Shown here in pieces: positions 18,812 to 56,824 of a stretch of DNA of 64,000 nucleotides (the stretch's first letter is position 1; each line of letters starts with the position of its first letter). The position numbers were made by a program, and so were the translations under genes. Below the pieces are notes generated by a model. That model saw only the letters and a list, made by a program, of their open reading frames with translations. It had not been told where the DNA came from and did not search any database. The stretch is from Patescibacteria group bacterium (lineage in GTDB: Bacteria > Patescibacteriota > Minisyncoccia > UBA6257 > Colwellbacteraceae). The stretch lies in NCBI GenBank assembly GCA_023380305.1, contig JAMCQZ010000008.1, positions 122,659 to 186,658 of the forward strand. Direction: 5' to 3'.

Positions 18812-18824
18812 TTTTTTGTTAATT

Positions 18825-27547: not shown

Positions 27548-28843
27548 ATGATTTCACGAATCAAATTGTCCAGACTAGCTGACAAGCGACTCGCGCGCCC
27601 CTCCTCCATCCCGTCTCCAACCGCAGGTCTGGAACAGGGCTTCACTCTCGTCGAACTCCTCCTTGTCATAGGGATCCTTGGAATCATGGGAGGAATCACG
27701 GTTCTCGTGTTGAGGCCAGCTGAGCTCTTGAAACAAGCCCGGGATTCGGAAAGGCTAGCCGATATGAAGACGTTGAGCCAGCTTTTCACCTCGTATACCA
27801 CCCAGGTGTCGGAGCTCTACGGAAACCCGCAGAACATCTACCTTTCTTTGCCCGACACAAATCCGGATTGCTCTTCCTACAGCCTCCCAGATATTCCTTC
27901 CGGCTACAGCTATCATTGCGTTTCCACAGCAAACCTGAAGAAGGTGGACGGAACAGGCTGGATACCGGTGAACTTCAATTCCATTCCTGGAGGTTCTCCT
28001 ATCGCGGTCTTGCCTGTTGATCCGGCAAACAACGTTTCCTATTACTACAGTTTTGTGGAGGGAGGGTCGTATTCGTTGACCTCGTTTTTAGAATCCCAGA
28101 AACGGGCCCAAGAGAAACCAGATACCGAAGCCACTGGTTCGCTCAGGCAAGACGGTTTTGTCTACGCGATCGGAACAGATCTCGATCTTACGCCCGATAT
28201 AATTTGGGGGAGGAGCTGTAAAACCATCAAAACCCAATATCCGCAGAGTCCCGACGGGCTTTATTGGATAGACGCCGATGCCGAAGGCATTGAGCCGGAA
28301 ATCAGGGTATATTGCGACATGACGACCGACGGCGGAGGATGGACCCTTATCCAATCAACCGTTAAGGGCCAGGCAGCTGACAGCCGTTGGGCCGATACGT
28401 TCCCTAACCAACTCTATCAGACGATCGGCGAACCGTCGCTCATCAGCCCATACCGATTGGCCATGCGTTACTGGTATCTCATACCGAACACCAGCTGGAG
28501 CAAAATGGCGATTACGACAGCTGAGCAAAAGAAGACCTTCAATAAATCTCCGACTTTTTCCCTGACCGGCGTCAATGCCGGCCCGACCGGCTTTACTTAT
28601 ATCGGATCTGATCCGGTTGTCGTCCTTAACTCGCTAAGTTCTTACAACTGGAACACCTGCACTTATGGCGTGGCTTATTTCAACACCAGTTGCTGCGGCA
28701 CCTGCATCCTCTACAACAATCCGACCACCTACAACGCCTACAATCAGCCGATGATGTCGACGATCACCGCCATTGACGGGTCGGTTATCCAGAAATGGAA
28801 TAATTTCGCGCCTCTCGACCGACTCAATATCTTCTCGAGATAG
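27548..28843 (+). CDS. type IV pilin-like protein with C-terminal fibrinogen-related domain (FReD), long 30-aa leader
   Basis: Prepilin cleavage/methylation motif G|FTLVELLLVIGILGIMGG after a 30-residue leader. The C-terminal CKTIKTQYPQSPDGLYWIDADAEGIEPEIRVYCDMTTDGGGWTLIQ carries the FReD signature (C..I....SG.Y.I....VYCDM..DGGGWTVIQ), followed by a Cys-rich tail. Confidence 0.7.
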   Translation: MISRIKLSRLADKRLARPSSIPSPTAGLEQGFTLVELLLVIGILGIMGGITVLVLRPAELLKQARDSERLADMKTLSQLFTSYTTQVSELYGNPQNIYLSLPDTNPDCSSYSLPDIPSGYSYHCVSTANLKKVDGTGWIPVNFNSIPGGSPIAVLPVDPANNVSYYYSFVEGGSYSLTSFLESQKRAQEKPDTEATGSLRQDGFVYAIGTDLDLTPDIIWGRSCKTIKTQYPQSPDGLYWIDADAEGIEPEIRVYCDMTTDGGGWTLIQSTVKGQAADSRWADTFPNQLYQTIGEPSLISPYRLAMRYWYLIPNTSWSKMAITTAEQKKTFNKSPTFSLTGVNAGPTGFTYIGSDPVVVLNSLSSYNWNTCTYGVAYFNTSCCGTCILYNNPTTYNAYNQPMMSTITAIDGSVIQKWNNFAPLDRLNIFSR

Positions 28844-34729: not shown

Positions 34730-36061
34730 CTAAACTATTTTCCAAGCTATCGGGCCTGTCTGGCGCTCTACTTCCTCAAATGAGGTAACGCCTCTCAACA
34801 CCTTAATCAAACCGTCCGCCTGCGCGCCGACAAACCCCTTTTTGACAGCGGCTTTTTCAATATCGAACTCCGTCATATTCTCGGCGATGATGGAGGCGAA
34901 TTCTTTATCGAATCTCAATATTTCAAAAATGCCGATTCTCCCCTTATAACCCGTGTTGTTGCAGACGGGGCAGCCGACCGCTTTGTATAGACGAACCTCT
35001 TCTGCTTTCGGTTTGTCCACGATTCCGGGAAGGGCATCAAGAAAACTTTTTATCTTCTCTTTTGTCTCCTCGGACGGATCAACCGATTCCCGGCATTCTT
35101 CACAAAGTTTTCTCACCAGCCTTTGGGCGATGACCACGTTCAAGGCCGGTCCGATAACCGAGGGTTTGATGCCCAAATCAAGAAGCCTCGGCACGGCGCC
35201 GACGGCATTATTGGTGTGCAAGGTGGAAAAAACCAGGTGGCCGGTAAGGCTGCTGTGAAGCGCGATCTCCGCTGTTTGCTCGTCGCGGATTTCACCGACC
35301 AGGATAACGTCCGGGTCCTGCCTCAAGATCGATCTCAAGCCGTTTTCAAAAGTGTATCCGGCGCTTTCGTCAACCTGGGTCTGTTCAATGCCCGGGAGGT
35401 GATATTCAATCGGATCCTCGATGGTAATAATCTTGATATCCGGACTGGAAACAGACTTCAAAAAAGCATAAAGCGTAGTGGTTTTGCCCGATCCGGTCGG
35501 CCCGGTAACCAAGATCATGCCGTTCGGACGCTTCAGCTCCTCGGCCATCACAGCTTCATCATCTTTGCGCAGGCCAAGGTCGCCGATGTTTAAAGAGATG
35601 GCCGCCGGGTTCAGCAATCTTAAAACTGCGGTCTCGCCGAACTCCGAAGGGTTGACTGAAACTCTGATTTCGACGTCAATCGCTCCGGCGGGCTCCAAAA
35701 CGCGCGCCGTAAAGCGACCATCCTGGGCCACGTCGCGGACATTCAGTTTTAAATTCCCCAAAAGCTTGATCCGGTTTAAAATCAAAGCGTAAGAATCCCT
35801 GCCGATTTCGGCGATATCATTCAAAACGCCGTCGATGCGCGCCCGCAAGCGCGTTTTTCCTTCTTCGATCTCCAAATGAATGTCTGAAGCGTCGAGGCCG
35901 AGACTCGAAGCGACGATCGTCTCCAAAAATTCAGAGGCGCTTGCTTTTTTGTCGTTTAAATCTTGAATTTTCTTCCCAAAATCGGCTATGGTTGTAGGAA
36001 GAAACGCCGAGATTTCTATCCCATCTCGGAAATCTGCATTCTCAGCCATTGAAAACATCAT
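34730..36061 (-). CDS. pilB: type IV pilus assembly ATPase PilB / GspE family
   Basis: GspE N-domain, Walker A LVTGPTGSGKTTTL, Asp/His boxes, and the tetracysteine motif CEECRE...CPVCNNTGYKGRIGIFE. Confidence 0.85.
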   Translation of the reverse strand: MMFSMAENADFRDGIEISAFLPTTIADFGKKIQDLNDKKASASEFLETIVASSLGLDASDIHLEIEEGKTRLRARIDGVLNDIAEIGRDSYALILNRIKLLGNLKLNVRDVAQDGRFTARVLEPAGAIDVEIRVSVNPSEFGETAVLRLLNPAAISLNIGDLGLRKDDEAVMAEELKRPNGMILVTGPTGSGKTTTLYAFLKSVSSPDIKIITIEDPIEYHLPGIEQTQVDESAGYTFENGLRSILRQDPDVILVGEIRDEQTAEIALHSSLTGHLVFSTLHTNNAVGAVPRLLDLGIKPSVIGPALNVVIAQRLVRKLCEECRESVDPSEETKEKIKSFLDALPGIVDKPKAEEVRLYKAVGCPVCNNTGYKGRIGIFEILRFDKEFASIIAENMTEFDIEKAAVKKGFVGAQADGLIKVLRGVTSFEEVERQTGPIAWKIV

Positions 36062-42583: not shown

Positions 42584-42718
42584 ATGTCATTAACTTATCA
42601 GCCGAGAAAGAAAAAGAGAAGCCGAACGCACGGCTTTCTTAAGCGTCAGAGCACCCCAGGCGGCAGACGGACGGTTGCGAGGCGTCGCGCCAAAGGAAGG
42701 AAGAGGCTGACGGTTTAA
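42584..42718 (+). CDS. rpmH: 50S ribosomal protein L34
   Basis: Not in the ORF track (44 aa). [44 protein letters not shown] aligns with L34. Its stop overlaps the rnpA ATG (TAATG). Confidence 0.85.
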
Positions 42719-43050: not shown

Positions 43051-43765
43051 CTTATTGCTTTACAGACCGTTTTTAAATCTTCTCGTTTGGATCTCCGAGC
43101 ATTTGGTCGCGGGCGATTTTGGTCTGGCTATCGTGATTTTGACCGTCGTCGTGAGGTTCTTGCTCTTCCCGTTCTTCCATAAGTTTCTAAAAGGACAGCA
43201 GGCGATGATAAAGGTCCAGGCCGAGCAGAAGAAGATCGAAGCGCAGTATCCCGGGAATAAAGAAAAACAGCTTCAAGCCATCATGGAGCTCTATAAGGCG
43301 AATAAAATCAACCCTTTTGCCAGCCTCCTCCTCACTTTCGTCCAAATACCGGTTATCTATGCCCTTTATAAAGTGATTATCACCGGCTTGAATGGCGGAG
43401 CCATTGGGAATCTTTACCCTTTTATTAAGCCGACGACGACGGTCAATTATTTGTTTCTAGGCTTGATAAATCTCAAAGAAAGCAATACGATAATGCTTGG
43501 TTTGGCGCTCGGAGTCCAGCTAATCCAGGGCGTAATGGCTGCCCCCGGAGGCTTGTTCGGAAAGACAACCCCGGAGCTTAAAAAAAGCCGGCAGACGGCG
43601 ATCAACACGAGTTTGATGATGACCGGACTTCTTGCTTTGTTTTTCTGGAAACTGCCGGCGGCCATCGGGCTTTACTGGCTGGCATCGACCTTGTTTTCAA
43701 TCGGCCAGCAGTTAATCGTCAATAAAATAAGCGCGCAAAATGGAGAATTTAAAGGAAATAACTAA
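43043..43765 (+). CDS. yidC: membrane protein insertase YidC (short, monoderm-type)
   Basis: ILTVVVRFLLFPF, MIKVQAEQKKIEAQY, ELYKANKINP, and the typical five-TM core. Confidence 0.85.
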   Translation: MFNLLLYRPFLNLLVWISEHLVAGDFGLAIVILTVVVRFLLFPFFHKFLKGQQAMIKVQAEQKKIEAQYPGNKEKQLQAIMELYKANKINPFASLLLTFVQIPVIYALYKVIITGLNGGAIGNLYPFIKPTTTVNYLFLGLINLKESNTIMLGLALGVQLIQGVMAAPGGLFGKTTPELKKSRQTAINTSLMMTGLLALFFWKLPAAIGLYWLASTLFSIGQQLIVNKISAQNGEFKGNN

Positions 43766-44171
43766 AAAATTGGTCGGAATGATCGGTTTTAGGGACGCAA
43801 ACGTCGATTTTGACGAGATGAACAGGCGCGTTCTCATCTTTATTAACGACGAGTTTGCCGGACCCGCCAACGTTCCAGAGCTTATCAACCATTTCAGTCG
43901 GGTCTTTAAGCTGGTAGCTAAGAAGTTCGACGAAGGCCCAATTACCGTTGACATCAACAACTATCGAAAAGAGAGGGAAAAACTTATTATCGAATTGGCG
44001 AGGGCTGGAGCGAGGAAGGCGAGCACCACCAAGAAAGAGGTGGCTCTGCCGCCGATGAACGCTTATGAAAGAAGGCTGGTTCACTCAGAGCTTTCTTTGA
44101 GACCGGATATCAAGACAGAGAGCGTCGGCGAAGGATCCGGCAGGCAGGTGATCATCAAGGTGTTGGAATAA
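43740..44171 (+). CDS. jag: Jag/KhpB-like RNA-binding protein (KH plus R3H)
   Basis: C-terminal R3H MNAYERRLVHSELSLRPDIKTESVGEGSGRQVIIK, downstream of yidC. Confidence 0.8.
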   Translation: MENLKEITKKLVGMIGFRDANVDFDEMNRRVLIFINDEFAGPANVPELINHFSRVFKLVAKKFDEGPITVDINNYRKEREKLIIELARAGARKASTTKKEVALPPMNAYERRLVHSELSLRPDIKTESVGEGSGRQVIIKVLE

Positions 44172-44190: not shown

Positions 44191-44217
44191 AAAAACGGCC
44201 GAAAGGCCGTTTTTTTA
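44191..44217. terminator. bidirectional terminator (AAAAAACGGCC-GAAA-GGCCGTTTTTTT)
   Basis: Perfect hairpin flanked by A7/T7, between the convergent jag and M23-peptidase genes. Confidence 0.6.
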
Positions 44218-45006
44218 ACCGGCGGGGTTAAAAGGATTGGCGAGGGGGTTGACCCTCGTGCCGTTTAGGGCGATCTCGAAATGCACGTGCGGGCCGGTTG
44301 AACGACCGGTGCTTCCGGCCAAGGCGATTTCTTCGCCTTTGGTAACCGTGTCTCCGACTCTCACAAGCAGCTCGGAACAGTGGCCATAGAGCGTGGTATA
44401 GCCATTCGCGTGTTGAATTTGAATATAATTGCCGTATCCGTCCGGATCAAAGCTGGCGACAATGACTTTGCCCGTCTCCGCTGCATAGACCGGAGCCCCC
44501 ATATTAACCGCGATATCAATCCCGTGATGTACGGAGGCGCCTCGCGGACCGAAAGGAGACGAGATCCAGCCGCTTGAAAGGGTCGGCCAGCTGAAACCGT
44601 TGATCAGTTGTTGGCTTAATCCCCCGACGTTGCTCGGGCCCGAAGACCTGCCTTCGGCAGGAAGATTTATTTTCTGGAGCGGAGGAAGATTGATTTTAAA
44701 CTCCAAAAGAGAAGGATTAATGACGGAAATGATGATGTAGCTCGTGGCGAGGATCCCCAGGCCCCAGGCTGCCTCGGTGATCATCTCTTTGGAACGTTTT
44801 TGTTTGGCCACGTCGTTTGCATGGACCGTGTATTGAAATCCGGCCCAGAGAATAATGAGGAAGGCGATGAATCCACCAAGTTCCCAAGCAAAGACGAACA
44901 GATTTTCGAGCCCTCCGGGGATGAGGCTGTTTAGCGCTTCGAGAATGCCGCTCGAAGACGTTGTCCCGTTGCTCGCCAAGGCGACACCCGTGAAAAAATT
45001 GGACAT
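44215..45006 (-). CDS. M23 (LytM) peptidase with N-terminal pilin-like 2-TM domain (PrgK/VirB1-like function for a T4SS)
   Basis: HHGIDIA...GYGNYIQIQH...HVHFEI are the M23 zinc ligands. N-terminal residues 1-110 resemble the small VirB2-like paralogs (two TM helices with a charged loop). Confidence 0.75.
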   Translation of the reverse strand: MSNFFTGVALASNGTTSSSGILEALNSLIPGGLENLFVFAWELGGFIAFLIILWAGFQYTVHANDVAKQKRSKEMITEAAWGLGILATSYIIISVINPSLLEFKINLPPLQKINLPAEGRSSGPSNVGGLSQQLINGFSWPTLSSGWISSPFGPRGASVHHGIDIAVNMGAPVYAAETGKVIVASFDPDGYGNYIQIQHANGYTTLYGHCSELLVRVGDTVTKGEEIALAGSTGRSTGPHVHFEIALNGTRVNPLANPFNPAG

Positions 45007-45049
45007 ATTATTTCAATTATACTCGAAAACCTGGGAAAGACGACAGCTT

Positions 45050-45415
45050 TTAAAACGGAGTTTTCCTGGCCGTTCCGGCAACCTTGACGATCGTTTGCGC
45101 TTCCGGCCGGCTGATAAGGAAAAAAGTAACGAGCAGAGTGATGGTCTTGATGGGTAAAATATTCAAAATTGGGAAGAGCTCGAAAACGCCGCCGGCGAGA
45201 GACCAAACGCCTTTGATGCCTTTGACAAGCAAATAGCCGTTGATGACAATGCCGGCGATAAGGGCGACGAAAGAATTTAGAAACAGGAAGATGAGCCCGA
45301 CCACCGGCACCAAGCCGAAAAGTCCGTTCAAGAGTTCGAAAAGATCGGCTCCGATCGCCACCAAAAAAAGAATGATCCCCTCGGGCAGCGATATTTTGGG
45401 AGACGCTTTATCCAT
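45050..45415 (-). CDS. small polytopic membrane protein (VirB3-like?) in T4SS-like operon
   Basis: Three predicted TM helices. The start overlaps the stop of the upstream VirB4-like gene (translational coupling). Confidence 0.45.
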   Translation of the reverse strand: MDKASPKISLPEGIILFLVAIGADLFELLNGLFGLVPVVGLIFLFLNSFVALIAGIVINGYLLVKGIKGVWSLAGGVFELFPILNILPIKTITLLVTFFLISRPEAQTIVKVAGTARKTPF

Positions 45416-47760
45416 TAGACGTTTTCCTGCTCCTCGAGACCTTCTTCTCCGGCGAGCGCCGCCTCGGCCTGTTCGGCTTCGACGATCTCTTCCGGATTGG
45501 TAGTGATGATCTGGTGCTCGAAGGGAGAGGCGACGACTTCGATTGCCGCATGGGTCAGCCCCGCGAGAAACAGGCCCTGGCCGATGTCTACCTCAAGAAG
45601 ATAATTCTTTTCCGATTCGGAAAGTCCGAAGGCCTTGCCCGTTGATTCGATGGACGAAGGGGACTGTTTCAAAAGCAGTTGGAGGGATGAGTTGGTGATG
45701 ATCGGCCGGCCGTAGGGAGAGCTTAAAAAGTCCTCCACGTCCTGGGTGATGGTCGAGATGCCGAGATAGTATTTTCTCGCTCTTTTGACGAGGCCGAAAA
45801 GGAATGAGGCCGAATCCGGATATTTCATCATCCACCAGGCCTCATCGATGATCATCAGCCTTTTTTTGAGGTCGGCTCTCACTAGGTTCCAGACGAAATT
45901 CAAAATGATGAACATGGCGATCGGACGGAGTTCGTCTTCGAGGTCGCGGATGGAAAAAACAATGAGCCGGTTATTGGTGTCGATATTCGAAGCCTGGTTC
46001 AAGAACCCGGCATAGCTTCCTTTGGTGAAACGATAGAGCCGGTCGGCCAGGGCACGGCCGCCTTCGATATTTCGGAGGATTTCCTCCAGGTCTTCGAGGA
46101 GCGGCGGCGTGGCGCCGGAGAAGTCCTTGTTCGGCGTGATGTCTTTCGAGGCGTAGGCTTCGGTGATGGCCTGATCAATAACGGCTTCTTCCTCCGGCTT
46201 GATCTCTCCGAACATCAGCTTTAAAAGGCTTGTCAGGTTGACGATGTGTGATTTCAGGACTTCTGGCGGACTCTCGTCTTCCGGAATTTGCGGAACGTCA
46301 AAAGGGTTGATGTGGTTCGGCGAATCGAGCGAAATCTTGATAAAGGATCCGCCCGCGGAATTCGCCAGGTTTTCATATTCGTTTTCCGGATCGATGATGA
46401 TCACCTCGTCGCCGATCATGAGAGATCGGAGCACTTCGAGCTTGGTGGCATAGGATTTTCCGGATCCGGCTTTGGCGAAGACGACGGTGTTGGCGTTTTC
46501 CAAAGAAAACCGGTCGAAGATGATGGGAGTGTTGTTGTGCCGGTTGATGCCGTAGAGTATGCCCTCGTCCGAGGACAGGGTGGCGGAGACGAACGGAAAG
46601 AAAGAAGAAAGCGTGTTGGTGTTGAAGGGATTCGCGATTTCCAGACGGTCCTCGGCGATCGGTAGGGTGGAGTAGAAGCCCTGGAGGTTTTCAAAAAGCA
46701 AAGGCTTGGCGTAGATGAGCTTGGCCTCGAGTCCGCTCGAAATGCGGTCGATGATGCGGTTGAGATCCGAAGAGTCTTTGCCGAAAATGGTCAGATAAAC
46801 GCTTACCGAAAAAAGTTTTTCCTGAGATTGCTGAAGGTTGTCTCGCAAGGCCTCGATATCCTGCAGGGCGGTCTCGAGCATCGGATCCCGGACCAGGCCT
46901 TTCTCTTCGATTTCCATAAGTTGGACCTGGACCTGGGCTGATCGGTTGCGGAGCTGTCTCAAGACGTCTCCTGTCTCGGTGGGCGAAATATGGATGGAAA
47001 TGTCGGCGAGCTCGGCGAGATTGATGAGGCCAGAAAGCCAGCCGCTCGAGAGATACCGCGGATAACCGGAAAGAAAAAGAGATTTGGCTGTCAGCTCGTC
47101 CACCTTTAGGGAGTCCGGAGCGATCTCGAATCGCCGTGGCCCGATGAATTTCTGGGCCTCGGCCGGATTCAGTTTTTCTCCCGGGTTGAAGGCGCTGTAA
47201 AAAAGCTCTCGGAGCTCCGCTTCTTCGAGGACAATGCCGCGGAGCCCGATGCGGTGGAGGCTGTTTATGATCTGGCTGGCCTTGAGATCAAGTTTTTCTT
47301 TGGCTTCGCGGACGGCCGTCGGCTCTGTCTCGGCTGGAGGCTGTTGCCGGCCGATGGTCGGCAGGCTGATGATCTCGTGGGGGATGGTGATGAAAAAACC
47401 TTTTTTCATCACGGCGTTTTCGGCGACGAAATTTTCGATGAACTCCCGATAGATGGCGATTTGGGAACGCATCATCTCGTTCTGCTCCTGGTTTTCTTTT
47501 TCTTTCAGCCGGTTCAAATAGTCGTCGATAAAAAACTTTCTCGAAGAGACGCTGATTTCGATCGGATAGTCGAGGGAGTTTAGGAGATCGGCGAAGGCCG
47601 AAAGGATCATCTGCTGTTCTTCCTCGGATTTAAGATCGAAGTTGACGCCGTTCACCATGATGACCTTGCGGAGTCCGCCGTCTTTCAAAAAAACGGAATC
47701 GCCTTCGATTTTTTTGACCGGCAGGATGTTCTCCGAGGAGATGTTTTGTTTCTGAGCCAT
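45415..47760 (-). CDS. VirB4/TrbE/PrgJ-family type IV secretion ATPase
   Basis: Walker A FAKAGSGKSYATK, Walker B MIIDEAWWMM, plus the N-terminal VirB4 domain. 781 aa. Confidence 0.8.
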   Translation of the reverse strand: MAQKQNISSENILPVKKIEGDSVFLKDGGLRKVIMVNGVNFDLKSEEEQQMILSAFADLLNSLDYPIEISVSSRKFFIDDYLNRLKEKENQEQNEMMRSQIAIYREFIENFVAENAVMKKGFFITIPHEIISLPTIGRQQPPAETEPTAVREAKEKLDLKASQIINSLHRIGLRGIVLEEAELRELFYSAFNPGEKLNPAEAQKFIGPRRFEIAPDSLKVDELTAKSLFLSGYPRYLSSGWLSGLINLAELADISIHISPTETGDVLRQLRNRSAQVQVQLMEIEEKGLVRDPMLETALQDIEALRDNLQQSQEKLFSVSVYLTIFGKDSSDLNRIIDRISSGLEAKLIYAKPLLFENLQGFYSTLPIAEDRLEIANPFNTNTLSSFFPFVSATLSSDEGILYGINRHNNTPIIFDRFSLENANTVVFAKAGSGKSYATKLEVLRSLMIGDEVIIIDPENEYENLANSAGGSFIKISLDSPNHINPFDVPQIPEDESPPEVLKSHIVNLTSLLKLMFGEIKPEEEAVIDQAITEAYASKDITPNKDFSGATPPLLEDLEEILRNIEGGRALADRLYRFTKGSYAGFLNQASNIDTNNRLIVFSIRDLEDELRPIAMFIILNFVWNLVRADLKKRLMIIDEAWWMMKYPDSASFLFGLVKRARKYYLGISTITQDVEDFLSSPYGRPIITNSSLQLLLKQSPSSIESTGKAFGLSESEKNYLLEVDIGQGLFLAGLTHAAIEVVASPFEHQIITTNPEEIVEAEQAEAALAGEEGLEEQENV

Positions 47761-47763
47761 GGG

Positions 47764-48264
47764 TTAGCGGTAATCTATGCGGCGGACAGCTTCTTTTTCG
47801 CCGGTTATTTTTTGGATAATGGCGTATTTCTGGCGCCACTCGTTTTGGTTTCTGATAAAATCGGCTTCGAAAGCCATTTCCCGTTTCGGCACCGGAGCGA
47901 CGCTCGTGGTGATGCGCTCAAAAAGGCTGGTGAGGGAAGGCTTCGCCGTTACTCCGGCGGGGGCGACGGCCACCAGTTTTTCTTCGGCGTAAGCCGGCCA
48001 GACGTAAAGTTTTGACCGCGTAAGATAATAAAAAGAGGCTCTGACCACTATCGGGAGAGGCCGGGTGTTTATTTTAACAAAAGCCAGGCCGGCGCCGGCT
48101 CCCATAAGGCCGGCGGCGACGATGATCCAAACCCAATGCGCCAGAGGAAAATACAGGGCGTAGGCGATGGCCGCCGGAATGGCGAGGTAGATGAACTGGG
48201 TGAGCGTTAAAGAACCGATGATGCGGTTCTCGGTGCTGATAAACTGCGGAACTAAAAATTGCAT
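47764..48264 (-). CDS. PrgI-like small membrane protein (VirB3 analogue of monoderm T4SS)
   Basis: 166 aa, two TM helices (FIYLAIPAAIAYALYF; VWIIVAAGLMGAGAGLAFV), immediately upstream of VirB4 as in Gram-positive conjugation operons. Confidence 0.45.
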   Translation of the reverse strand: MQFLVPQFISTENRIIGSLTLTQFIYLAIPAAIAYALYFPLAHWVWIIVAAGLMGAGAGLAFVKINTRPLPIVVRASFYYLTRSKLYVWPAYAEEKLVAVAPAGVTAKPSLTSLFERITTSVAPVPKREMAFEADFIRNQNEWRQKYAIIQKITGEKEAVRRIDYR

Positions 48265-48308
48265 CGCTTTGTTAAAGTCTTTCCGAACAGAAAAAGACTC
48301 TATTAATT

Positions 48309-49145
48309 CTACAAAGGAAGGTCCCTTAAGTCTATTTTCTTGTTTTCGGGAGAGGCTGCGGACTTGGCGGTGTTTTCAATGACGCGATCATTGAATTTGG
48401 CCGGCGAGATAATGGCCGGCGCGGGTTCGGTCGGGACAACAGTCGGTTGGGGGGCCGGTGTTTCCGACCGCGTCGGCGGGTTGAGGGGCGTCTTGAGGCT
48501 GGAATAATGAACGATTTTCGGGGCGAAGACTTCGGTCCTGCCGATCGCGGGCGGTTGGGGTTTTATTGGTTCGGTCGGGACAGGTTCCTTGTATCCGCCA
48601 AATTGGATTCTGGCTGGCTGGGCCGGCTGCCTGAATGTCGGTTGGGCCTGGCTCGAGCTGAAGAAAGCCTGCCTGATCGGTTCGTAATTGATGTCGTGTT
48701 CTTCGGCGAGGGTTTTGAAAGCAGCCTCCTCATGGAGAATATAGGGCGAAGGGGTAGCAGGAGAGGGCTGAATTTCCGAGGGCGTTGCCGGGATAACGGA
48801 TATGGGCATCTCTAAGGGCTCGGTCTGCGGCGTCGGCGTCGCGACAGCCGGCGATGGAGCGGTCGGGATAAGACCAATATCGATCCCGAACGCGGACAGG
48901 TTGTTTTTAATCGGCGTGAGTATTTTTTCGACGATCTGCTGAAGAAGCTCCGGCGGCAATTCTCGGCCGGCGCGTTTTTGAAGTTCTATCGCGAAATTCT
49001 CCGGAGATATTTGTTTGGACTCCAGATAATAAAGGGTAAGCGTCAAAACCGAAATATCAAAGTTGAATTTGCCGGCAAGTTCTTCGTAAACAGCTATCAT
49101 CGGCTCGGAATTGAGCCATGTTTTGATGTTGAGGGGAATCTCCAT
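48309..49145 (-). CDS. hypothetical Pro-rich protein in T4SS-like operon
   Basis: Structured N-domain followed by a P/T/A-rich low-complexity C-terminal half. No TM helix and no family match. Confidence 0.45.
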   Translation of the reverse strand: MEIPLNIKTWLNSEPMIAVYEELAGKFNFDISVLTLTLYYLESKQISPENFAIELQKRAGRELPPELLQQIVEKILTPIKNNLSAFGIDIGLIPTAPSPAVATPTPQTEPLEMPISVIPATPSEIQPSPATPSPYILHEEAAFKTLAEEHDINYEPIRQAFFSSSQAQPTFRQPAQPARIQFGGYKEPVPTEPIKPQPPAIGRTEVFAPKIVHYSSLKTPLNPPTRSETPAPQPTVVPTEPAPAIISPAKFNDRVIENTAKSAASPENKKIDLRDLPL

Positions 49146-49148
49146 AAT

Positions 49149-49465
49149 CTATTTTTCTCCCGGCTTGATAATCTTCGCCTCGGGATTGGGCTGCGCTCCC
49201 GGAGTAATAATTTTGGCTTCGGGATTAGGCTGGTTCCCGGCTGTGATTATGCGAGCCGGACCGGTGGCGGCCTCTCGATAACGTTCCATTGGTTTGATGT
49301 CGATCGGGTAATCGCGGGAAGCCGGCCCGTAGATTTTCGCTGAAGGGTTTGGCTGCGCTCCCGGAGTAATAATTTTGGCTTCGGGATTAGGTTGGGCTCC
49401 GGGCGTGATGATCTTCGCTTCGGGATTGGGCTGAACCTCGGAAGGATTGATAATCCGTGAAGGGC
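49149..49465 (-). repeat. 39-bp in-frame tandem repeats (five full or partial units) in the virB6-like 3' end
   Basis: GGCTGCGCTCCCGGAGTAATAATTTTGGCTTCGGGATTAGG-type units are visible at ~49190, 49230, 49340 and 49380; they encode AQPNPEAKIITPG. Confidence 0.6.
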
Positions 49466-51746
49466 CGGCGGGCATTGCCGGAGAAGCCGGGCTGGTCGGG
49501 GAGGTCGGACTTGGCTCTATCGGAGTTGGCGGTTGGGAGCCGGGACCGCTCGGCGGGGGCGATTCCAGTTCCGCGACCAATTCGGACCAGGAAGGAATGC
49601 GTTTTAATCTGCGGACAGTATTTTCGAAGGCCTGGTTCTGCTGGGGGTCTTCGGGATCTGTTTTGATGGCTTTTAATGTTTTCCCGATATTTTCTATTTG
49701 TTCATTAGTGCCTTCGTCGCCAAGTTTTCTGAATTGGGAGTCGGTTATGGCCAGGACAACAGGTCTGGAGTTAAAGGCTTCTGGCACGACATCCAGGATC
49801 TCGCTTGGCTTGAGGCCTTTGACGATTTTGGCGGGATTTGATGCGTGGTGGGGCATTGTTTTTTCGAAAGCGCCGGTCGCTTTGATGCTTTGCGCGGCCA
49901 AAACCAGCTGGCGGATTTTTTCATTGATGGGCTGTCTGCGTTCTTCGCTCAAGCCGACTTTAGCCAGATCGCCTTCTTTAAAAGAAGTAATTTTTTTATC
50001 CTGCAATTGCTGTAAGAGTGCGGTGCGCGCTTGCGGATTCATCAAAGAAATATTCGCGGAGTTCAGATAACGGATGAGAGTTTCTTTGGACCAATCTTTA
50101 TAGGCGGCGCCGTATTCGCCGATGGATTTTTTCTGAGCTTCTTTTAATTTCCCGGCAAGCACGTCCGAGCCGACGGCCAGGGGCCTTGTAATGAAGCTGC
50201 CAGCGAGTATGTTCTTGGCGCGTTGGTATTGGGGAGCCGCCATGATTCTTCCTCCCAAAATAGTGCCGAGGCTTTTACCTTCCCTGATGGGGATATTCTT
50301 GGCTCTTTCAAGCCAGCGGCTGGCTAGTCCGAAAACGGCTTTCCCACCGCCCAGGCTGAGACTGTTTGCCTGTTGCAGGCCGATGGCGAGCAAAACCAAT
50401 TGGATGATCAGCCTGCCGACGCCGAGTCCTAAAGATTGACCGAAGACCGTTTCGGTTGTCGCGTCGAGGCCGATCGAGCTTAAGCTAAGCACGATGTAGA
50501 TGAAGAGCATCATCAGCGGAGCGAAAACCAACCATTGGATGAATTGTTGGCTCCAATCTTCAAATGACAGTTTCTTGAAGGAGACAACCGGGAAGACTCT
50601 CATAAAAATTACTAGGGGAGAAATGATGACGAGGAAAGTCAGGTATCCCCAACGGATGAAGAACATGATGGCGATCGCGGACATTACGAGAATGATGCCG
50701 ATGCCGACGAGGGCCGTGAGAAGAGGCATAAAGATAAGTTGGAAAATGCCCTCGATGTTTCCGAGAATGGCTGAATTCGGCGTGGCCGCCGGGATTCTCC
50801 CGAAATAATTCCAGGCATTGGAATCGGTGACTATCTGGCTGAGCGCCAAAGTTATTTTGTCGGAAAAGCTGATGAATATTCCGGCCAGAGCGAAGGTGAA
50901 ATTCACCAGGAAGAAAGCGAGAAGAAACTTGGGCAGGCTGTTTTTGTCGATTTTGCCCAGGATCTTGGAATTCGGGAACACGGGTCTCAGCATCGTGGCA
51001 AAGCCGATGCCGAGGATTCCGAAAACGAAAAACAAATTGACGAATTGGAGGACGACGTCGAATCCGGCTTTGGCAAGGCTGGCGCCCCCGTAAATGGTCG
51101 AGTTTAAAGCGATGGCTCCAGAAAGGATATAAACAGCGAGTTTGACGAAGCCTTTGATGATGGCGCCGACAATATTGGTGAGGACGCAGGCAAGAGTGCC
51201 CGTAATGTTCAGGCTTAAAAGCGGCAGCATGCAGCTAGAATCTCCTTCCGGCTGGCAGACGCCGACAACGCTTTGGGGCTCGTAGACGCAGACGAGAGGC
51301 GCCTTGCAGGGCATGAATTCGGTTTTGCCGGTGGGTTTTCCTTCAGCGTTTTTTTGCGGAATATTGCCGCATTGATCGCCGATTTGTTCGGCCCCAGCCA
51401 ATCCTATTTTGGCTTCTTGGGTTCGGATATAAGTGTCGGCTTCGCTCTGGATATAGCACCGGCCGGTGTCGGCTCCGGTGTCGTCGGGGACGCATTTGTA
51501 GTCATTGGGGCATTCGTTTGCCAATCCGACGCTACAAAAGCAGTCTGACCCCGATCCAAGCGGACCGCTGGCCGGAAGACAGACGCCGCTTGATCCGCCG
51601 AGGCTGGTGGGAGAACAGTGCTGGTTTTCGGCGCAGGGTTTGTCCGGGCCGCAAGCCGGTCCCGAGGGCCGGCAGGCCGCCTCCGCTTTTCCGACCATAA
51701 GCACGACCGATAAGACAACCGCGAGCAAGAGGAAATATTTGCGCAT
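49149..51746 (-). CDS. VirB6/TrbL/PrgH-like large polytopic T4SS membrane protein with Cys-rich N-terminal ectodomain and C-terminal tandem repeats
   Basis: Signal peptide (from Met13, MRKYFLLLAVVLSVVLMVG), a Cys-rich 180-aa domain, at least 8 TM helices, and a C-terminal (IITPGAQPNPEAK)x5. The ORF-track GTG start at 51782 would overlap rsmA. Confidence 0.55.
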   Translation of the reverse strand: MRKYFLLLAVVLSVVLMVGKAEAACRPSGPACGPDKPCAENQHCSPTSLGGSSGVCLPASGPLGSGSDCFCSVGLANECPNDYKCVPDDTGADTGRCYIQSEADTYIRTQEAKIGLAGAEQIGDQCGNIPQKNAEGKPTGKTEFMPCKAPLVCVYEPQSVVGVCQPEGDSSCMLPLLSLNITGTLACVLTNIVGAIIKGFVKLAVYILSGAIALNSTIYGGASLAKAGFDVVLQFVNLFFVFGILGIGFATMLRPVFPNSKILGKIDKNSLPKFLLAFFLVNFTFALAGIFISFSDKITLALSQIVTDSNAWNYFGRIPAATPNSAILGNIEGIFQLIFMPLLTALVGIGIILVMSAIAIMFFIRWGYLTFLVIISPLVIFMRVFPVVSFKKLSFEDWSQQFIQWLVFAPLMMLFIYIVLSLSSIGLDATTETVFGQSLGLGVGRLIIQLVLLAIGLQQANSLSLGGGKAVFGLASRWLERAKNIPIREGKSLGTILGGRIMAAPQYQRAKNILAGSFITRPLAVGSDVLAGKLKEAQKKSIGEYGAAYKDWSKETLIRYLNSANISLMNPQARTALLQQLQDKKITSFKEGDLAKVGLSEERRQPINEKIRQLVLAAQSIKATGAFEKTMPHHASNPAKIVKGLKPSEILDVVPEAFNSRPVVLAITDSQFRKLGDEGTNEQIENIGKTLKAIKTDPEDPQQNQAFENTVRRLKRIPSWSELVAELESPPPSGPGSQPPTPIEPSPTSPTSPASPAMPAGPSRIINPSEVQPNPEAKIITPGAQPNPEAKIITPGAQPNPSAKIYGPASRDYPIDIKPMERYREAATGPARIITAGNQPNPEAKIITPGAQPNPEAKIIKPGEK

Positions 51747-51765
51747 TGTTAAAATAATACCATTT

Positions 51766-52536
51766 TTAACCCGCGAAAACACGGCTCAACTCGATGATCT
51801 GGTCGAAGGAAAGTTCCTGGCCCCGGATGGAGGGGTCGATGCCTTGTTTCTCGAGCCGACTTTGGATTTCTCCCTTGTTGATTTTGAGGGCCGAGAGATT
51901 GTTAAGGATGGTTTTTCTCGGTTGTTTGAAGAGCGTCTTGATAAAGGCGTAGTAGTTTTGGCGTTCGGCTTCGCTTCTATCAATTTGTTTGGTTTTAAGG
52001 AGAATGACGGCCGAATCCACTTTGGGCTCTGGAGAAAAGTCTTTTCTGGGAATGCTTAAGACTATTTGGGGCTCGGCCCAGAAGGCGATACTCCCTGCAA
52101 GCAGGTTCATCTCCGGCGGCTTGGCGGACGCGCGTTCAGCCACTTCTTTCTGGATGGTGAAAACCGAGATCATAGGTTTTCGCGGTAGATTTTCAATCAA
52201 TCTAAAAAGATGGCCGGTGATGTAGTAGGGAATATTGCCGCATAGTTTGTAGCCGTAGCCGATGTTTTCGACGATTGCCGGCAGAGATTTGAGGGCGTCG
52301 GCTTCAACCACTTCCAGTTTTTCCGGGGACAAAGGCATTAATCTGGCGGCCAGTTTCGGGTCGCGTTCAATAGCGATCAGTTTCCTCGGATTTTTATAGA
52401 GCAGATGTTTGGTCAGCTCTCCATGGCCCGGGCCGATTTCGATGAGGACGTCGTCCGGAGAAATATCCAAAACCCCGGCGATTCTTTCAAGAACCGTTTC
52501 GTTTTTCAAAAAATGCTGGCCTAATCGCCTCATCAA
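51766..52536 (-). CDS. rsmA: 16S rRNA (adenine1518/1519-N6)-dimethyltransferase
   Basis: LGQHFLKNETVLERI, IEIGPGHGELT. Confidence 0.9.
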   Translation of the reverse strand: MMRRLGQHFLKNETVLERIAGVLDISPDDVLIEIGPGHGELTKHLLYKNPRKLIAIERDPKLAARLMPLSPEKLEVVEADALKSLPAIVENIGYGYKLCGNIPYYITGHLFRLIENLPRKPMISVFTIQKEVAERASAKPPEMNLLAGSIAFWAEPQIVLSIPRKDFSPEPKVDSAVILLKTKQIDRSEAERQNYYAFIKTLFKQPRKTILNNLSALKINKGEIQSRLEKQGIDPSIRGQELSFDQIIELSRVFAG

Positions 52537-54278
52537 TCCAAGTATATCGTATCTTCGTCGGTTTTGGGTCTGATGCCGTCGAACTCGACGAGCTCCGGAG
52601 GAATCTCATAGAGAAATCTCGAAGGAAAGTTGAAAAAGCTGATAAAAAGCTTCTCCCTGGCGCGGGTCATAGCCACGTACATCAGTCGGCGTTCTTCTTC
52701 GAGCTCGTCTTTGGACGCGAGCGAACGGTGGTGGGGCAGGAGGCCTTCGTTTACGCCGACGATGAAGACGTTTTTGAATTCGAGACCTTTGGAAAGATGG
52801 ATGGTCATCATTTTCACGCCTGGCCGATCAGCCCCCTTGATTTCGTCGTTCGCCTGGAAAAGGGAGATCTTCTCGAGCAGTTCCTCGAGCGATTTGGCTT
52901 CGGCGGCGAACCCGACGAGCTCGCCGATATTTTCCATGCGTTCCTCGCTATTTTTGAATTTGGTCGCGAGGAGAGCCGGATAGTTGGCCGTCTGGAGAAT
53001 GAAGCCGATGAGTTCGGCCGGCGAGAGGCTCGCGGCCATTTCCGGCAGTCGTTCGATGAGTTCGGTCGCCGGTTTCCGGTTGAAGGAAGACTCGATGCGC
53101 TCGCGGCTGATCATATCCCTTGGGTTGAATCCGTAGCGCAGACAGGCGACGACGTCCTTAATTTCTTTCCTTTCGTAGAACTTCAATCCGCCGTAGATCT
53201 GGTAGGGGATCTGGTTATAAATGAAATATTGTTCGATCGGCCGGGACTGGGCGTTCGTTCGGAAAAGCACGGCCGTGTTTTCCCAGTCTCCCAGGTCGAT
53301 TATTTTTTCAGCGAGCCATTCGGCTTCGCCTTCGGCGTCATAGGCCCCAAAAACCTTTATTAAATCCCCTTCAGAGTTGTCGGTCCAAAGGGTTTTCGGC
53401 CGCTGGAGCGTATTGTGGCGGATGACTTCCCCGGCCGCGGAAATAATGTTCTTGGTCGAACGGTAGTTTTGGTCGAGGGTAACCACCTTGGCTTCGGGCC
53501 AGTCCTTTTCGAAATTCAAAAAATTTCTGAAGTCCGATCCGCGGAAGCTGTAGATGCTCTGGGCGTCGTCGCCGACGACGCTCAAATTACGGTGTCCGGA
53601 AGCGAGAAGCCTCACCAGTTCGTACTGACTCTGGTTGATGTCCTGGTACTCGTCGACGAGAATGTGCCGGAACTGGTCGCGGTATTTGGCGAGGGCGTCG
53701 GGGCTTTCCGAAAAGAGCCGGACCACCTTTTCAATGAGGTCGTCGAAATCAAAAGCGTTTGCTTCGACAAGGCCCGCTTCGTAGTTTTCGAAGATTTTGA
53801 TTCCCATATCGTCGCCCAGGTCTTCCGGCCGTAGAAGCTCGCTTTTGACGCGCGATATTTTTCCGAGATAGCTAGCGGCCGGGAACCTTTCCTTGTCGAG
53901 ATCGAGCGACTTAACGATGTTTTTGATGAGTTTTAAGGAATCGTCGTCGTCGAAGATAACGTAGCCCCTGGTCCGGCCGAAAGAAGGTTCTTGTCTCAAT
54001 ATCCGGGCGCCGAGAGAGTGGAAGGTGCCGAGAAAAGGCGTCCTGCCGGATTTGATTTCCGGATAAACCCGTCTTTTTATCTCTTCGGCCGCTTTGTTTG
54101 TGAAGGTGATGGCGACGATTTGATCGGCCGGAACCCCTTTCTGGATCAAAAAGGCCAATCTTTGGGTCAGGGTTCTGGTTTTGCCCGATCCGGCGCCGGC
54201 GGTGATGAGCAGGGGGCCGTCGCCGGCGGTGGCGGCTTCGAGCTGGCGATCGTTCAGATTTTGTGGTATAATAGGCAT
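52533..54278 (-). CDS. UvrD/PcrA-family ATP-dependent DNA helicase (compact, 581 aa)
   Basis: Motif I AGAGSGKTRTLTQR, motif II VDEYQD, motifs IV-VI (e.g. VAMTRARE). Confidence 0.85.
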   Translation of the reverse strand: MPIIPQNLNDRQLEAATAGDGPLLITAGAGSGKTRTLTQRLAFLIQKGVPADQIVAITFTNKAAEEIKRRVYPEIKSGRTPFLGTFHSLGARILRQEPSFGRTRGYVIFDDDDSLKLIKNIVKSLDLDKERFPAASYLGKISRVKSELLRPEDLGDDMGIKIFENYEAGLVEANAFDFDDLIEKVVRLFSESPDALAKYRDQFRHILVDEYQDINQSQYELVRLLASGHRNLSVVGDDAQSIYSFRGSDFRNFLNFEKDWPEAKVVTLDQNYRSTKNIISAAGEVIRHNTLQRPKTLWTDNSEGDLIKVFGAYDAEGEAEWLAEKIIDLGDWENTAVLFRTNAQSRPIEQYFIYNQIPYQIYGGLKFYERKEIKDVVACLRYGFNPRDMISRERIESSFNRKPATELIERLPEMAASLSPAELIGFILQTANYPALLATKFKNSEERMENIGELVGFAAEAKSLEELLEKISLFQANDEIKGADRPGVKMMTIHLSKGLEFKNVFIVGVNEGLLPHHRSLASKDELEEERRLMYVAMTRAREKLFISFFNFPSRFLYEIPPELVEFDGIRPKTDEDTIYLD

Positions 54279-54926
54279 ATTAGTAATTTAGCTCACAAAT
54301 CAAGATATGTTTTCTTGGCGGCGATAGGAATCGCCATATTTTTTGCGGGTTTCGGCCAGAGTATTTTAGCAAAAAGCGAAGCCCAAAAGCTATCGAAGTT
54401 TTTGGCCGAAAATTCGGTTTTCGGATCGGTTTTCCCGGGATTGCGGCCGGACGGCTCGTTTTCGGCCTTTTCCCAGATTATTTCCCCGGAGGTAGTCATT
54501 TCCGACGGATTAAACCGTGAACGGATCACGGAAGGGGCCTTGTTCGAGGCTTCGGAGACGGTTGAAGACGATCTCGCCGGCCGGACCGAAACCACGATCT
54601 ATAAAGTCCAGCCGAGAGATACTCTTGTTTCCGTCGCCAGAAAGTTCAATATTTCGACAGACACCATCGTGTGGGCCAACGGTTTGAAGACAAGGGCTTT
54701 GAAGCGGGGTTCGAGCCTGGTGATTCTTCCGGTCTCCGGAGTGATCCATGAAATCAAATCTGGTGAGACCGTGGAATCGATCGCCGACAGCTACCACGTG
54801 CCGGCCCAGCAGATTTACGCTTTCAATAAAGGCAAGATTTTAACCGAGGGAGTCGAACTTATCGTCCCCGGAGGTCAGCCTTTGGACAACGGTTTGGCCA
54901 CGCAGTCTTCGGCGAAAGTCAACTAA
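54279..54926 (+). CDS. secreted/membrane-anchored protein with two LysM domains (start codon uncertain)
   Basis: LysM 1 YKVQPRDTLVSVARKFNISTDTIVWANGL and LysM 2 HEIKSGETVESIADSYHVPAQQIYAFN. N-terminal hydrophobic segment FLAAIGIAIFFAGFG. There is no in-frame ATG after the divergent uvrD start. Candidate starts are ATT 54279 or TTG 54315. An extended -10 TGGTATAAT lies at ~54264-54272. Confidence 0.5.
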   Translation: MSNLAHKSRYVFLAAIGIAIFFAGFGQSILAKSEAQKLSKFLAENSVFGSVFPGLRPDGSFSAFSQIISPEVVISDGLNRERITEGALFEASETVEDDLAGRTETTIYKVQPRDTLVSVARKFNISTDTIVWANGLKTRALKRGSSLVILPVSGVIHEIKSGETVESIADSYHVPAQQIYAFNKGKILTEGVELIVPGGQPLDNGLATQSSAKVN

Positions 54927-54948
54927 AAGATTTTTGTGAGAGCCGCTT

Positions 54949-56487
54949 TCAAGCGGCGTTTTTTAATCTGTATTGATAGGCCTCAGCTACGTGGTCGGCC
55001 GTAACGAGTTCCGATTCCTCGAGATCGGCGATGGTGCGGCTTACCTTGAGCATCCGGAAATAGCCCCGGCCGGAAAGCTCCGATTGGTCAAAGATTTTCT
55101 TTAGCATGTTGTCGGCGCCGCGGTCGCAATTGATAAGTTCCTCACATTGTTTCGAAGACATTTCGCTATTGAGGAGTAGGGAGATTTTCTGTTGTGCAAA
55201 ACGTTCTTTTTGAATTTCTCTTGCTTGGTTGACCCTTCTTCGGATTTCTGAGCTTCTCGCTCCGCCGCTTGATCTGAGTTCGCCGAGTTTCAGATTGGGA
55301 ACGTGGATTTGAATGTCAATCCGGTCAAGCAAGGGGCCGGAGATTTTCTTCTGGTAGCGGAAGATTTCGTTGGCGCTACAGCGACATTCGCGTTTCGGGT
55401 CGCCGTAAAATCCGCAGGGGCATGGATTCATAGCGGCGACGAATTGGAAACGCGAGGGGAAGGTGAGGCTGGACTTCGCCCTTGAAACGACGATCTCTCC
55501 AGATTCAAGGGGTTGCCTCAGGGCTTCGAGAATATCCCGGTGGAATTCGGGTAGCTCGTCCAAGAAAAGCACGCCGCGGTGGCTTAAGCTGATTTCCCCG
55601 GGTCTGGGATTCGCGCCGCCGCCGATCACGGAAACGATCGAGGCTGAATGGTGTGGCTGCCGGAAAGGCCGCGATTTTATAAAAGAAGCATTTTCGGGGA
55701 TCATTCCCGCGGCGCTCCAGACCTTGGAGACTTCGAGCGCTTCGGCCAGGGTGAGCGGCGGCAGAATGGAGCCGAGGGCTTTGGCGAGCATGGTCTTGCC
55801 GGACCCCGGCTGTCCGGACATGAGAATGTTGTGGCCGCCGGAAGCGGCGACAATCAGGGCCCGTTTGGCCGCTTCCTGGCCGCGGACGTCTCCGAAGTCG
55901 AATTCTGCTTCGATATTTTCGAAATCCGGTTCTTGGTTCGGGAAAACATCGATCAAACGTTTGTTTTCGAAGTGGTCGATGGCTTCCGCGAGGCTGCCAA
56001 CTGGGACGACGGCGATCTCTTGGATAAGGCTTGCTTCCTCGGCGTTTTGTTTCGGAAGGACGATGGATTTAAATCCCTGTTCGGCGGCGGCCGAGGCGAT
56101 GTTCAAGGCGCCGCGCATCGGCCGGAGTCCGCCGTCGAGGCCGAGCTCGCCGACAAAAAGGATCTGCGAGGAGTCGAATTCTTTCATCTGGTTTGAAGCC
56201 ACTAGATAGGCGAGGGCGATTCCGAGATCGTATTGCGATCCGGATTTGTCGATATCCGCCGGCGCGAGGTTGACGACGATTCTCCGGTTTTCGCGGTTCG
56301 GCGGCCGGCAGCCGCTCCACTTGAGGGCCGAGTTTACCCTCTCTTTGGCCTCGGACAGTGCCTTGTCCGCCAGGCCGACGATCGTAAAACTATGAAGGCC
56401 GACGTTTAAGTCGACCTCGATTTCGATTATCCTCGCCTGCACCCCCTCGAGTTCCGCTGAGAAAACGCGAGACAGGTTGGCGGGCAT
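54949..56487 (-). CDS. comM: YifB/ComM family Mg-chelatase-like AAA+ ATPase
   Basis: ORF trimmed to Met30 (MPANLSRVFSAELEG...). Lon-like N-domain, Walker A MSGQPGSGKTMLAK, and the C-terminal ChlI-like region. Confidence 0.85.
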   Translation of the reverse strand: MPANLSRVFSAELEGVQARIIEIEVDLNVGLHSFTIVGLADKALSEAKERVNSALKWSGCRPPNRENRRIVVNLAPADIDKSGSQYDLGIALAYLVASNQMKEFDSSQILFVGELGLDGGLRPMRGALNIASAAAEQGFKSIVLPKQNAEEASLIQEIAVVPVGSLAEAIDHFENKRLIDVFPNQEPDFENIEAEFDFGDVRGQEAAKRALIVAASGGHNILMSGQPGSGKTMLAKALGSILPPLTLAEALEVSKVWSAAGMIPENASFIKSRPFRQPHHSASIVSVIGGGANPRPGEISLSHRGVLFLDELPEFHRDILEALRQPLESGEIVVSRAKSSLTFPSRFQFVAAMNPCPCGFYGDPKRECRCSANEIFRYQKKISGPLLDRIDIQIHVPNLKLGELRSSGGARSSEIRRRVNQAREIQKERFAQQKISLLLNSEMSSKQCEELINCDRGADNMLKKIFDQSELSGRGYFRMLKVSRTIADLEESELVTADHVAEAYQYRLKNAA

Positions 56488-56488
56488 G

Positions 56489-56824
56489 TCAGCTTTCCTG
56501 CTTGTTGTGCTCTTTGCAATAGCGCGCCGACGGATTGAGTTCGAGAACCTCCATCTCGATGTTTTCCCCGCCAATTTCGCAGATGCCGTAGACGTTGTTC
56601 TTGATTTTGTTCAAAGCCGAACGGATGTCGTCGAGTTTCTGCAGCAAGATGTCCTGCTTGCTTGCCTGCAAATCGGCCGCGGTCGATTCGTCGGCTTCTT
56701 CGGTTTCCTCGTCCTGGGTGTCGCCGAAATTGACAACATCGGGCGTGGCTTTGAGTTCGGACTCGATTTTGGCCTCTTCTTGGACCAGTCTTTTTTCAAA
56801 TTTTTCTAAATCTTCGTTCGTCAT
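56489..56824 (-). CDS. DksA/TraR-family C4 zinc-finger protein
   Basis: Acidic coiled-coil N-terminus and a C-terminal CEICGENIEMEVLELNPSARYC zinc ribbon. Confidence 0.55.
   Translation of the reverse strand: MTNEDLEKFEKRLVQEEAKIESELKATPDVVNFGDTQDEETEEADESTAADLQASKQDILLQKLDDIRSALNKIKNNVYGICEIGGENIEMEVLELNPSARYCKEHNKQES

Follow-up and report, generated by a model that had tools for sequence, protein, structure and literature searches.

What does an operon resembling a type IV secretion system (T4SS) do beside the replication origin of an ultra-small bacterium, when neither a coupling ATPase nor a relaxase is encoded around it? We examined this question in a stretch of 64,000 nucleotides (nt), called the window below, from a Patescibacteria group bacterium of the Colwellbacteraceae (assembly GCA_023380305.1, contig JAMCQZ010000008.1, positions 122,659 to 186,658), in which six co-directional, intact open reading frames (ORFs) of 877, 278, 166, 781, 121 and 263 amino acids (aa) occupy the minus strand from 44215 to 51782. 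An earlier, sequence-only reading had described the operon as a minimal monoderm-type channel and treated the system as open and novel. We consider it highly probable that the locus is a chromosomal, vertically inherited Patescibacteria T4SS, in a compact six-gene form like that of other Colwellbacteria and with a remote pilin array, which would serve in contact or exchange with a host. The system is already known: it was described between 2023 and 2025, its dnaA/ksgA neighbourhood included (PMC12102498, PMC10633639, PMC12857230), and most ultra-small Patescibacteria carry such a chromosomal T4SS beside the replication origin. What the window adds is the compact gene set, the recurrent pilin–hydrolase fusions and the remote pilin array.

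Components of the six-gene operon

The ATPase provides the clearest identification. The 781-aa protein scored 395 bits against the NCBIfam model NF045971 (VirB4-like conjugal transfer ATPase, CD1110 family), for which the curated equivalog cut-off is 325, and the second-best NCBIfam model was that of the VirB4 of a Mycoplasma integrative and conjugative element (ICE). In Pfam it matched P-loop_TraG at 95 bits and AAA_10 at 41 bits, and its Walker A motif (GSGKSYATK at residue 432, as the sequence-only reading had it) and Walker B motif (LMIIDE at residue 635) are both intact. Judged by these profiles and motifs, the protein is a true VirB4. A HerA or FtsK identity, which would have overturned that assignment, was considered and rejected, as the HerA/DUF87 score of merely 36 bits lies far under those for P-loop_TraG and NF045971. 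More than 7,900 VirB4 homologs were found, the nearest named one belonging to Candidatus Colwellbacteria; among the best 120, most of which lack a source name, all named ones are from Patescibacteria (Colwell-, Harrisonbacteria and Parcubacteria).

The largest protein has no direct match in Pfam or NCBIfam. Its ORF can be read from a GTG as 877 aa, and the ATG at 51746, which gives the same 865 aa that NCBI calls, is the likely start. Hydropathy analysis revealed a signal peptide, an ectodomain with 16 cysteines within residues 25–187, about seven transmembrane (TM) helices and a C-terminal tail of about 400 aa. The large polytopic protein with a Cys-rich ectodomain described before was thus borne out, as was the described topology of the other operon proteins. 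A homolog search with the whole 865-aa protein returned 6 matches, probably because of the low-complexity tail, and was redone with a TM-core alignment of positional orthologs from related loci. This profile search gathered 183 family members, one of which carries the NCBI name ‘type IV secretion system protein’ and some of which, P0127 and P0168 among them, exceed the TrbL cut-off; of 26 TM cores of positional orthologs, 4 matched TrbL/VirB6 (PF04610), with a best E value of 1.9e-7. An AlphaFold2 (AF2) model of residues 160–530, built from 92 sequences (pLDDT 78.4, pTM 0.66), was compared with PDB structures by Foldseek, which placed TrwI/VirB6 chains of R388 at ranks 1–4 and 6 with probabilities of 0.89–0.97. 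From the TrbL matches of its orthologs and the structure model, we accept the 865-aa protein, with moderate strength, as an ‘extended VirB6’, in agreement with the assignment made earlier. The same TM-core profile run against PDB sequences gave a sole, insignificant TrwI match (E = 7). A PF19590 assignment, precomputed for many relatives of the VirB6-like protein, could not be reproduced at E ≤ 0.05 for P0125 or at E ≤ 0.01 for P0134, P0168 and P0158, and was set aside. In the tail, a 39-nt (13-aa) Pro-rich repeat, AKIITPGAQPNPE, occurs about five times, in two blocks (49157..49451).

For comparison we fetched 83 related loci (numbered with the prefix L), among them loci of Colwell-, Harrison-, Jorgensen- and Kaiserbacteria. 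In 78 of them a PrgI homolog immediately precedes virB4. In the window, the 166-aa protein in this place scored 26.0 bits against PF12666, just under the cut-off of 27; its orthologs, for example in L001, match that family and the NCBI name is ‘PrgI family protein’, which upholds the PrgI-like assignment. The 278-aa protein, correctly singled out as a Pro-rich hypothetical, has no TM helix; about 90 aa at its N terminus form a helical domain, which is followed by a variable, Pro-rich, low-complexity tail; a positional family with a similar N-terminal pattern is found directly upstream of PrgI in most of 42 Paceibacteria loci. The three TM helices ascribed to the 121-aa protein were found again, and its orthologs, located immediately downstream of virB4, share the motif E-x-I-P-x-x-N-x-L-P. 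Neither the 278-aa nor the 121-aa protein has a Pfam or NCBIfam match. That the 3-TM protein could be a further pilin or a VirB3 paralog was rejected after hhalign found no relation to the pilin or PrgI families.

The last gene of the operon encodes a two-domain protein of 263 aa. Its pilin module matched T4SS_pilin (PF18895) at 29.3 bits, with a cut-off of 26.6, and its enzymatic domain matched Peptidase_M23 (PF01551) at 118.6 bits, with the catalytic motifs HHGID (HxxxD, at 160) and HVH (HxH, at 240) intact. Both domains had been recognised from the letters alone, in what was called a PrgK/VirB1-type hydrolase; the domains stand, but the type does not, as the hydrolases of VirB1, PrgK and CwlT are of the SLT, CHAP or NlpC/P60 kinds and an M23 metallopeptidase is their functional analogue, not their homolog. 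The pilin–M23 fusion is rare: among the 83 loci it occurs in L004 only, the closest relative of the window, and when 1.84 billion representatives were searched, 3 of the 150 best-ranking clusters had it. Nearly all relatives encode the pilin module by itself and have M23 in a separate LysM-LysM-M23 gene about 10 kb upstream; LysM-M23 genes occupy the equivalent position in L001, L003, L013, L030 and others (for example, L001:4634-5656 and L003:2797-3768).

In the window, the LysM gene beside uvrD and comM has no M23 domain, while the T4SS pilin gene has gained one. At the level of domain architecture, this paired loss and gain would fit a transfer of M23 from one place in the genome to another. 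A second fusion partner was seen in the close relatives P0270 (276 aa) and L002:12359-13261, where the same pilin module is joined to a different, Cys/His-rich C-terminal domain. This domain carries the motifs TGGTEVGH-x-SHG...D and HFH, found no Pfam or PDB sequence match and may, as a guess from the motifs, be a LAS/M15-like peptidase. Within this small clade, the VirB2-like pilin that follows virB4 has been fused to different extracellular domains repeatedly: to M23 in the window, in L004 and in the three clusters, and to the Cys/His-rich domain in P0270 and L002.

Further pilins are encoded away from the operon, in a three-gene array that the sequence-only reading had overlooked (Table 1). 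Over informative alignments, the array pilins share 23–33% identity with one another and with the fused module, a single value of 46% spanning just 13 aligned residues. The window thus holds four VirB2-like pilin modules, three of them above the PF18895 cut-off.

All six operon ORFs run in one direction, as had been reported; they lie on the minus strand, separated along the operon by 3, 44, 3, −1 and 43 nt. The tight packing of 1–4-nt gaps or overlaps claimed throughout was therefore seen at three of the five junctions (3, 3 and −1), but not at the two of 44 and 43 nt. The rsmA stop codon lies 19 nt before the ATG of the VirB6-like gene, and uvrD and rsmA, which overlap by 4 nt, are both packed against the start of the operon, so that more than the six genes may be transcribed as one unit. 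A promoter and terminator scan gave a signal no better than in shuffled sequence.

Table 1 Features of the T4SS locus, its neighbours and the replication origin (positions in the window).
Feature	Coordinates	Strand	Evidence
Extended VirB6-like polytopic membrane protein, 865 aa (candidate)	49149..51746	-	TrbL matches of orthologs; AF2/Foldseek
Conserved soluble protein, 278 aa, 15% Pro	48309..49145	-	Positional orthologs
PrgI/VirB3-like 2-TM protein, 166 aa	47764..48264	-	PF12666
VirB4 ATPase, unsplit (TrsD-like N-terminal domain + ATPase), 781 aa	45415..47760	-	NF045971, P-loop_TraG, AAA_10
Conserved small membrane protein, 3 TM, 121 aa	45050..45415	-	Positional orthologs
VirB2-like pilin module (residues ~33–96) fused to M23 zinc endopeptidase (residues 159–254), 263 aa, 2 TM	44215..45006	-	PF18895, PF01551
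Three-gene divergent VirB2-like pilin array, immediately downstream of gyrA, ~25 kb from the virB4 operon	17974..19157	-	PF18895
Array pilin 1, 110 aa	18825..19157	-	PF18895, 30.5 bits
Array pilin 2, 134 aa	18407..18811	-	PF18895, 28.9 bits
Array pilin 3, 119 aa	17974..18333	-	PF18895, 24.1 bits (below cut-off 26.6)
rsmA/ksgA, upstream neighbour (conserved), which may be transcribed together with the operon	51766..52536	-	PF00398, 150.8 bits
jag (R3H domain), conserved convergent downstream neighbour, end of the rpmH-rnpA-yidC-jag block	43740..44171	+	R3H, 59.4 bits
LysM-only gene, two LysM domains, without M23	54315..54926	+	203-aa protein in second assembly
Origin region flanking dnaA	41014..42565		DnaA boxes in the dnaA-dnaN spacer (41014, 41068, 41104) and the dnaA-rpmH spacer (42557)

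Chromosomal residence and inheritance

The operon is bounded by jag and rsmA, with the DnaA-box cluster 2–3 kb away. The genes at the origin run dnaN, dnaA, rpmH (42584..42718), rnpA, yidC and jag; the window contains 20 DnaA boxes against 7.9 expected by chance; the GC skew changes sign near 40–41 kb and GC content dips to 43% at the origin. Gene order, DnaA boxes and GC skew thus agree with the earlier placement of the locus between rsmA and jag, next to oriC. Of the 83 loci, 42 contain rsmA together with jag or yidC, and all 42 show the order uvrD-rsmA-[T4SS]-jag-yidC-(rnpA)-dnaA-dnaN. In total, 48 loci had a detected rsmA; in every one of the 42 with both flanks it lies upstream of the operon, and the convergent orientation of the operon and jag is kept in all related loci. 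Across 53 loci, identity to the VirB4 of the window correlates with DnaA identity (r = 0.94), and the synteny persists in dozens of genomes with DnaA down to about 40% identity. The conserved order and the co-divergence of VirB4 with DnaA argue for vertical inheritance with the chromosome, not as an ICE, so that core-genome residence, as first proposed, is strongly supported by these comparisons.

We scanned about 50 ORFs of the 64-kb window, and a further 10 kb past its right end, against Pfam; the window otherwise holds housekeeping genes (SHMT, aminoacyl-tRNA synthetases, ClpP, NusA, PNPase, GyrA, FtsH, RuvABC, PBP1a, ComM and RNase J). Within the stretch scanned there was no VirD4/TcpA-type coupling ATPase and no relaxase, in keeping, for the window, with what had been read from it; oriT was not specifically searched for. 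A complete surrounding ICE would have spoken against core-genome residence, and what we found was no direct (att-like) repeats bracketing the operon, a sole tyrosine recombinase that is XerC/D-like and 28 kb away, and neither relaxase nor type IV coupling protein (T4CP) in the stretch examined.

The operon might instead be the decaying remnant of an ICE, left without current function after loss of its relaxase, coupling protein and integrase. Its nearest curated families are indeed conjugative (CD1110 and the Mycoplasma ICE VirB4), and relaxase and T4CP are absent from the stretch examined, but none of the ORFs is disrupted and the catalytic motifs are preserved; GC content in the operon is 0.529 against 0.505 for the window, showing no compositional anomaly, and no att-like repeats were found. 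The same housekeeping flanks recur across the dozens of genomes described above, with VirB4 diverging in step with DnaA, and the homologous system of Saccharibacteria is essential (PMC10633639). Conserved synteny effectively refutes the remnant reading, and we regard a functionless remnant as barely credible; the ICE reading was rejected too.

A further explanation is that of a complete conjugation system, with relaxase and coupling protein encoded elsewhere in the genome, which mobilises chromosomal or plasmid DNA. About 74 kb of genome was inspected here and T4CP genes often lie far from virB4: a survey of 3,035 Patescibacteria genomes reports VirD4-like matches, mostly remote from virB4, in 2,918 (PMC12102498). 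However, that study found relaxases in merely 103 of the 3,035; the remote T4CP homolog of Southlakia epibionticum is non-essential, while its T4SS is essential; and the strictly vertical pattern seen here is ill-suited to a mobile function. We consider such a conjugative role very improbable.

Other features of the window were noted in passing. The operon, rsmA, uvrD and comM (44215..56574, minus strand) occupy the strand whose GC skew is negative rightward of the origin, and are hence transcribed towards oriC, head-on to replication. Also near the origin is a PilB/GspE-type T2SSE ATPase gene (34730..36061, minus strand; 388 bits), whose PBP1a-RuvC-YebC-T2SSE neighbourhood is kept in L001–L003. 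A 431-aa protein (27548..28843, plus strand), which combines a type IV pilin N-terminal methylation motif with fibrinogen C-terminal and fibrillar-collagen C-terminal matches, may by its domain content be a pilus-associated adhesin. A tRNA-Ile gene (25234..25308, plus strand) has the anticodon UAU, uncommon in bacteria, where AUA is mostly read by a lysidine-modified CAU tRNA. Two sizeable ORFs, of 411 aa (11550..12785) and 256 aa (6084..6854), both on the minus strand, had no Pfam match.

A proposed role in host contact

To this parts list and its conservation we add a sequence of steps modelled on known T4SS architecture. VirB4 hexamers would dock on a membrane platform made of PrgI and the VirB6-like protein, and their ATP hydrolysis would drive the extraction of VirB2-like pilins from the membrane and the assembly of these pilins into a tube that crosses the cell wall. 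The M23 domain, C-terminal to the second pilin helix, is predicted to lie outside the membrane, tethered by its own pilin-like hairpin, from where the endopeptidase could cut peptidoglycan cross-links locally and so open a passage for the structure. The assembled machine would then mediate contact and macromolecule exchange with the host cell that carries the bacterium. We infer that its function is that of a host-contact pilus or translocon rather than conjugation; between export of effectors and import of host material, sequence cannot decide.

Several points weigh against this interpretation. The absence of T4CP and relaxase genes extends over 64 kb plus 10 kb, and remote copies are possible. 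Among the operon proteins, Pfam and NCBIfam recognised no VirB8-like (PrgL/TraM) component, a negative at the level of sequence only, and none showed by hydropathy the VirB8-like bitopic layout of a single N-terminal TM helix and a globular domain. The Foldseek matches to TrwI/VirB6 are modest (E values of 0.04–0.3, TM-scores of 0.37–0.46), making the VirB6 call a transitive and structural one, and the formation of a pilus by these VirB2-like pilins is a prediction. Finally, essentiality was shown for the S. epibionticum system, whereas that of the window, from the Paceibacteria, is known from its genes alone.

Import has been put forward in its own right: in the manner of archaeal Ced or Helicobacter pylori ComB, the machine could bring in nucleic acids or other macromolecules from the host and feed a nucleotide-auxotrophic organism. 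VirB4 of the window shows weak similarity to CedB (32.7 bits) and CedD, scores that lie far under the cut-offs of 700 and 600, and its best models are those of conjugative monoderm systems. The lack of T4CP and relaxase in the stretch examined would fit an importer. A review proposes the T4SS as a route of nucleotide acquisition, comEC being dispensable while the T4SS is essential (PMC11665869), and a 2026 preprint ties VirB4, speculatively, to feeding on host RNA (bioRxiv 10.64898/2026.06.21.733656). The operon, however, encodes no recognisable DNA- or RNA-binding component, and the proposal stands at the level of sequence; we think a dedicated importer unlikely. Another reading of the recurrent fusions is an enzyme-armed pilus, in which the pilin module, more than a mere anchor in the membrane, would carry the lytic enzyme into the pilus or to its tip to breach the host wall; we view this as quite doubtful.

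A host-contact T4SS remains our preferred reading. Few machines have been shown, as the Patescibacteria T4SS has, to be essential to an epibiotic way of life. The locus in the window is no new kind of system, but a naturally pared-down one of six genes, whose VirB4 is unsplit and whose hydrolase anchors itself; it helps to define the minimal component set and would be convenient for structural work or heterologous reconstitution. The pilin–hydrolase fusions hint at how the wall, whether the bacterium’s own or that of its host, gets opened.

Comparison with known systems

The closest description is that of a Patescibacteria VirB4 clade nested in MPF_FATA and present in 2,407 of 3,035 genomes (PMC12102498; Quinonero-Coronel et al. 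2025). This clade is associated with PrgI/VirB3, VirB6, TrsD and PF18895 pilins, including pilin arrays, and in Paceibacteria its T4SS lies near dnaA, dnaN, rnpA, ksgA and rpmH. The window shares the PrgI/VirB3, VirB6 and PF18895 pilin components with an array, the location, and, in the stretch examined, the absence of a relaxase and of a local T4CP; its VirB4, for which the best curated models are monoderm ones, probably belongs to the clade as well.

Within the Paceibacteria the form varies. The clade of the window (L001–L005 and L039) has six genes over 6.4–7.3 kb and an unsplit VirB4, and in the window one pilin is fused to M23. Harrison-, Kaiser- and Jorgensenbacteria, by contrast, have about 11 genes over 11–16 kb and a split VirB4. 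In most Paceibacteria (L009–L083, for example L030:10001-12371), two ORFs make up VirB4, one TrsD-like (about 215 aa) and one encoding the ATPase (about 590 aa), and the cluster, again of about 11 genes, is flanked at either end by genes for large uncharacterised proteins. For the accessory genes of these long clusters, the window contains no homolog.

In S. epibionticum ML1, epibiotic growth requires a homologous cluster (SEML1_0006-0019) together with its pilins, comEC is dispensable, and the T4SS was noted to lack a recognisable coupling protein and relaxase (PMC10633639; Wang et al. 2023). Monoderm-type subunits, VirB2-like pilins and peptidase or lysozyme genes beside virB4 are common to both systems; that of S. 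epibionticum differs in belonging to the class Saccharimonadia, in its larger cluster and in having a six-pilin array inside the locus. Reviews call the function of these T4SSs ‘completely unknown’, with effector delivery or nutrient uptake proposed (PMC11665869, PMC12857230), and tubular structures at the host interface, possibly T4SS pili, have been reported (bioRxiv 10.64898/2026.06.21.733656).

The MPF_FATA systems of Gram-positive bacteria (PrgH-I-J-K-L of pCF10, the CD1110 family of CTn2 and Con of ICEBs1) have in common with the window the VirB6-VirB3-VirB4 order, an operon-encoded cell-wall hydrolase and the absence of outer-membrane components. They differ in residing on mobile elements, in having their own T4CP, relaxase, oriT, VirB8-like proteins and adhesins, in lacking VirB2 pilins, and in using SLT, CHAP or NlpC/P60 hydrolases where the window has M23. 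More distantly, Bordetella Ptl, Brucella VirB, H. pylori ComB and archaeal Ced demonstrate that VirB4 machines can run without VirD4 or can import; these are diderm or archaeal systems of other MPF classes, and their likeness to the system described here is confined to the P-loop region of VirB4.

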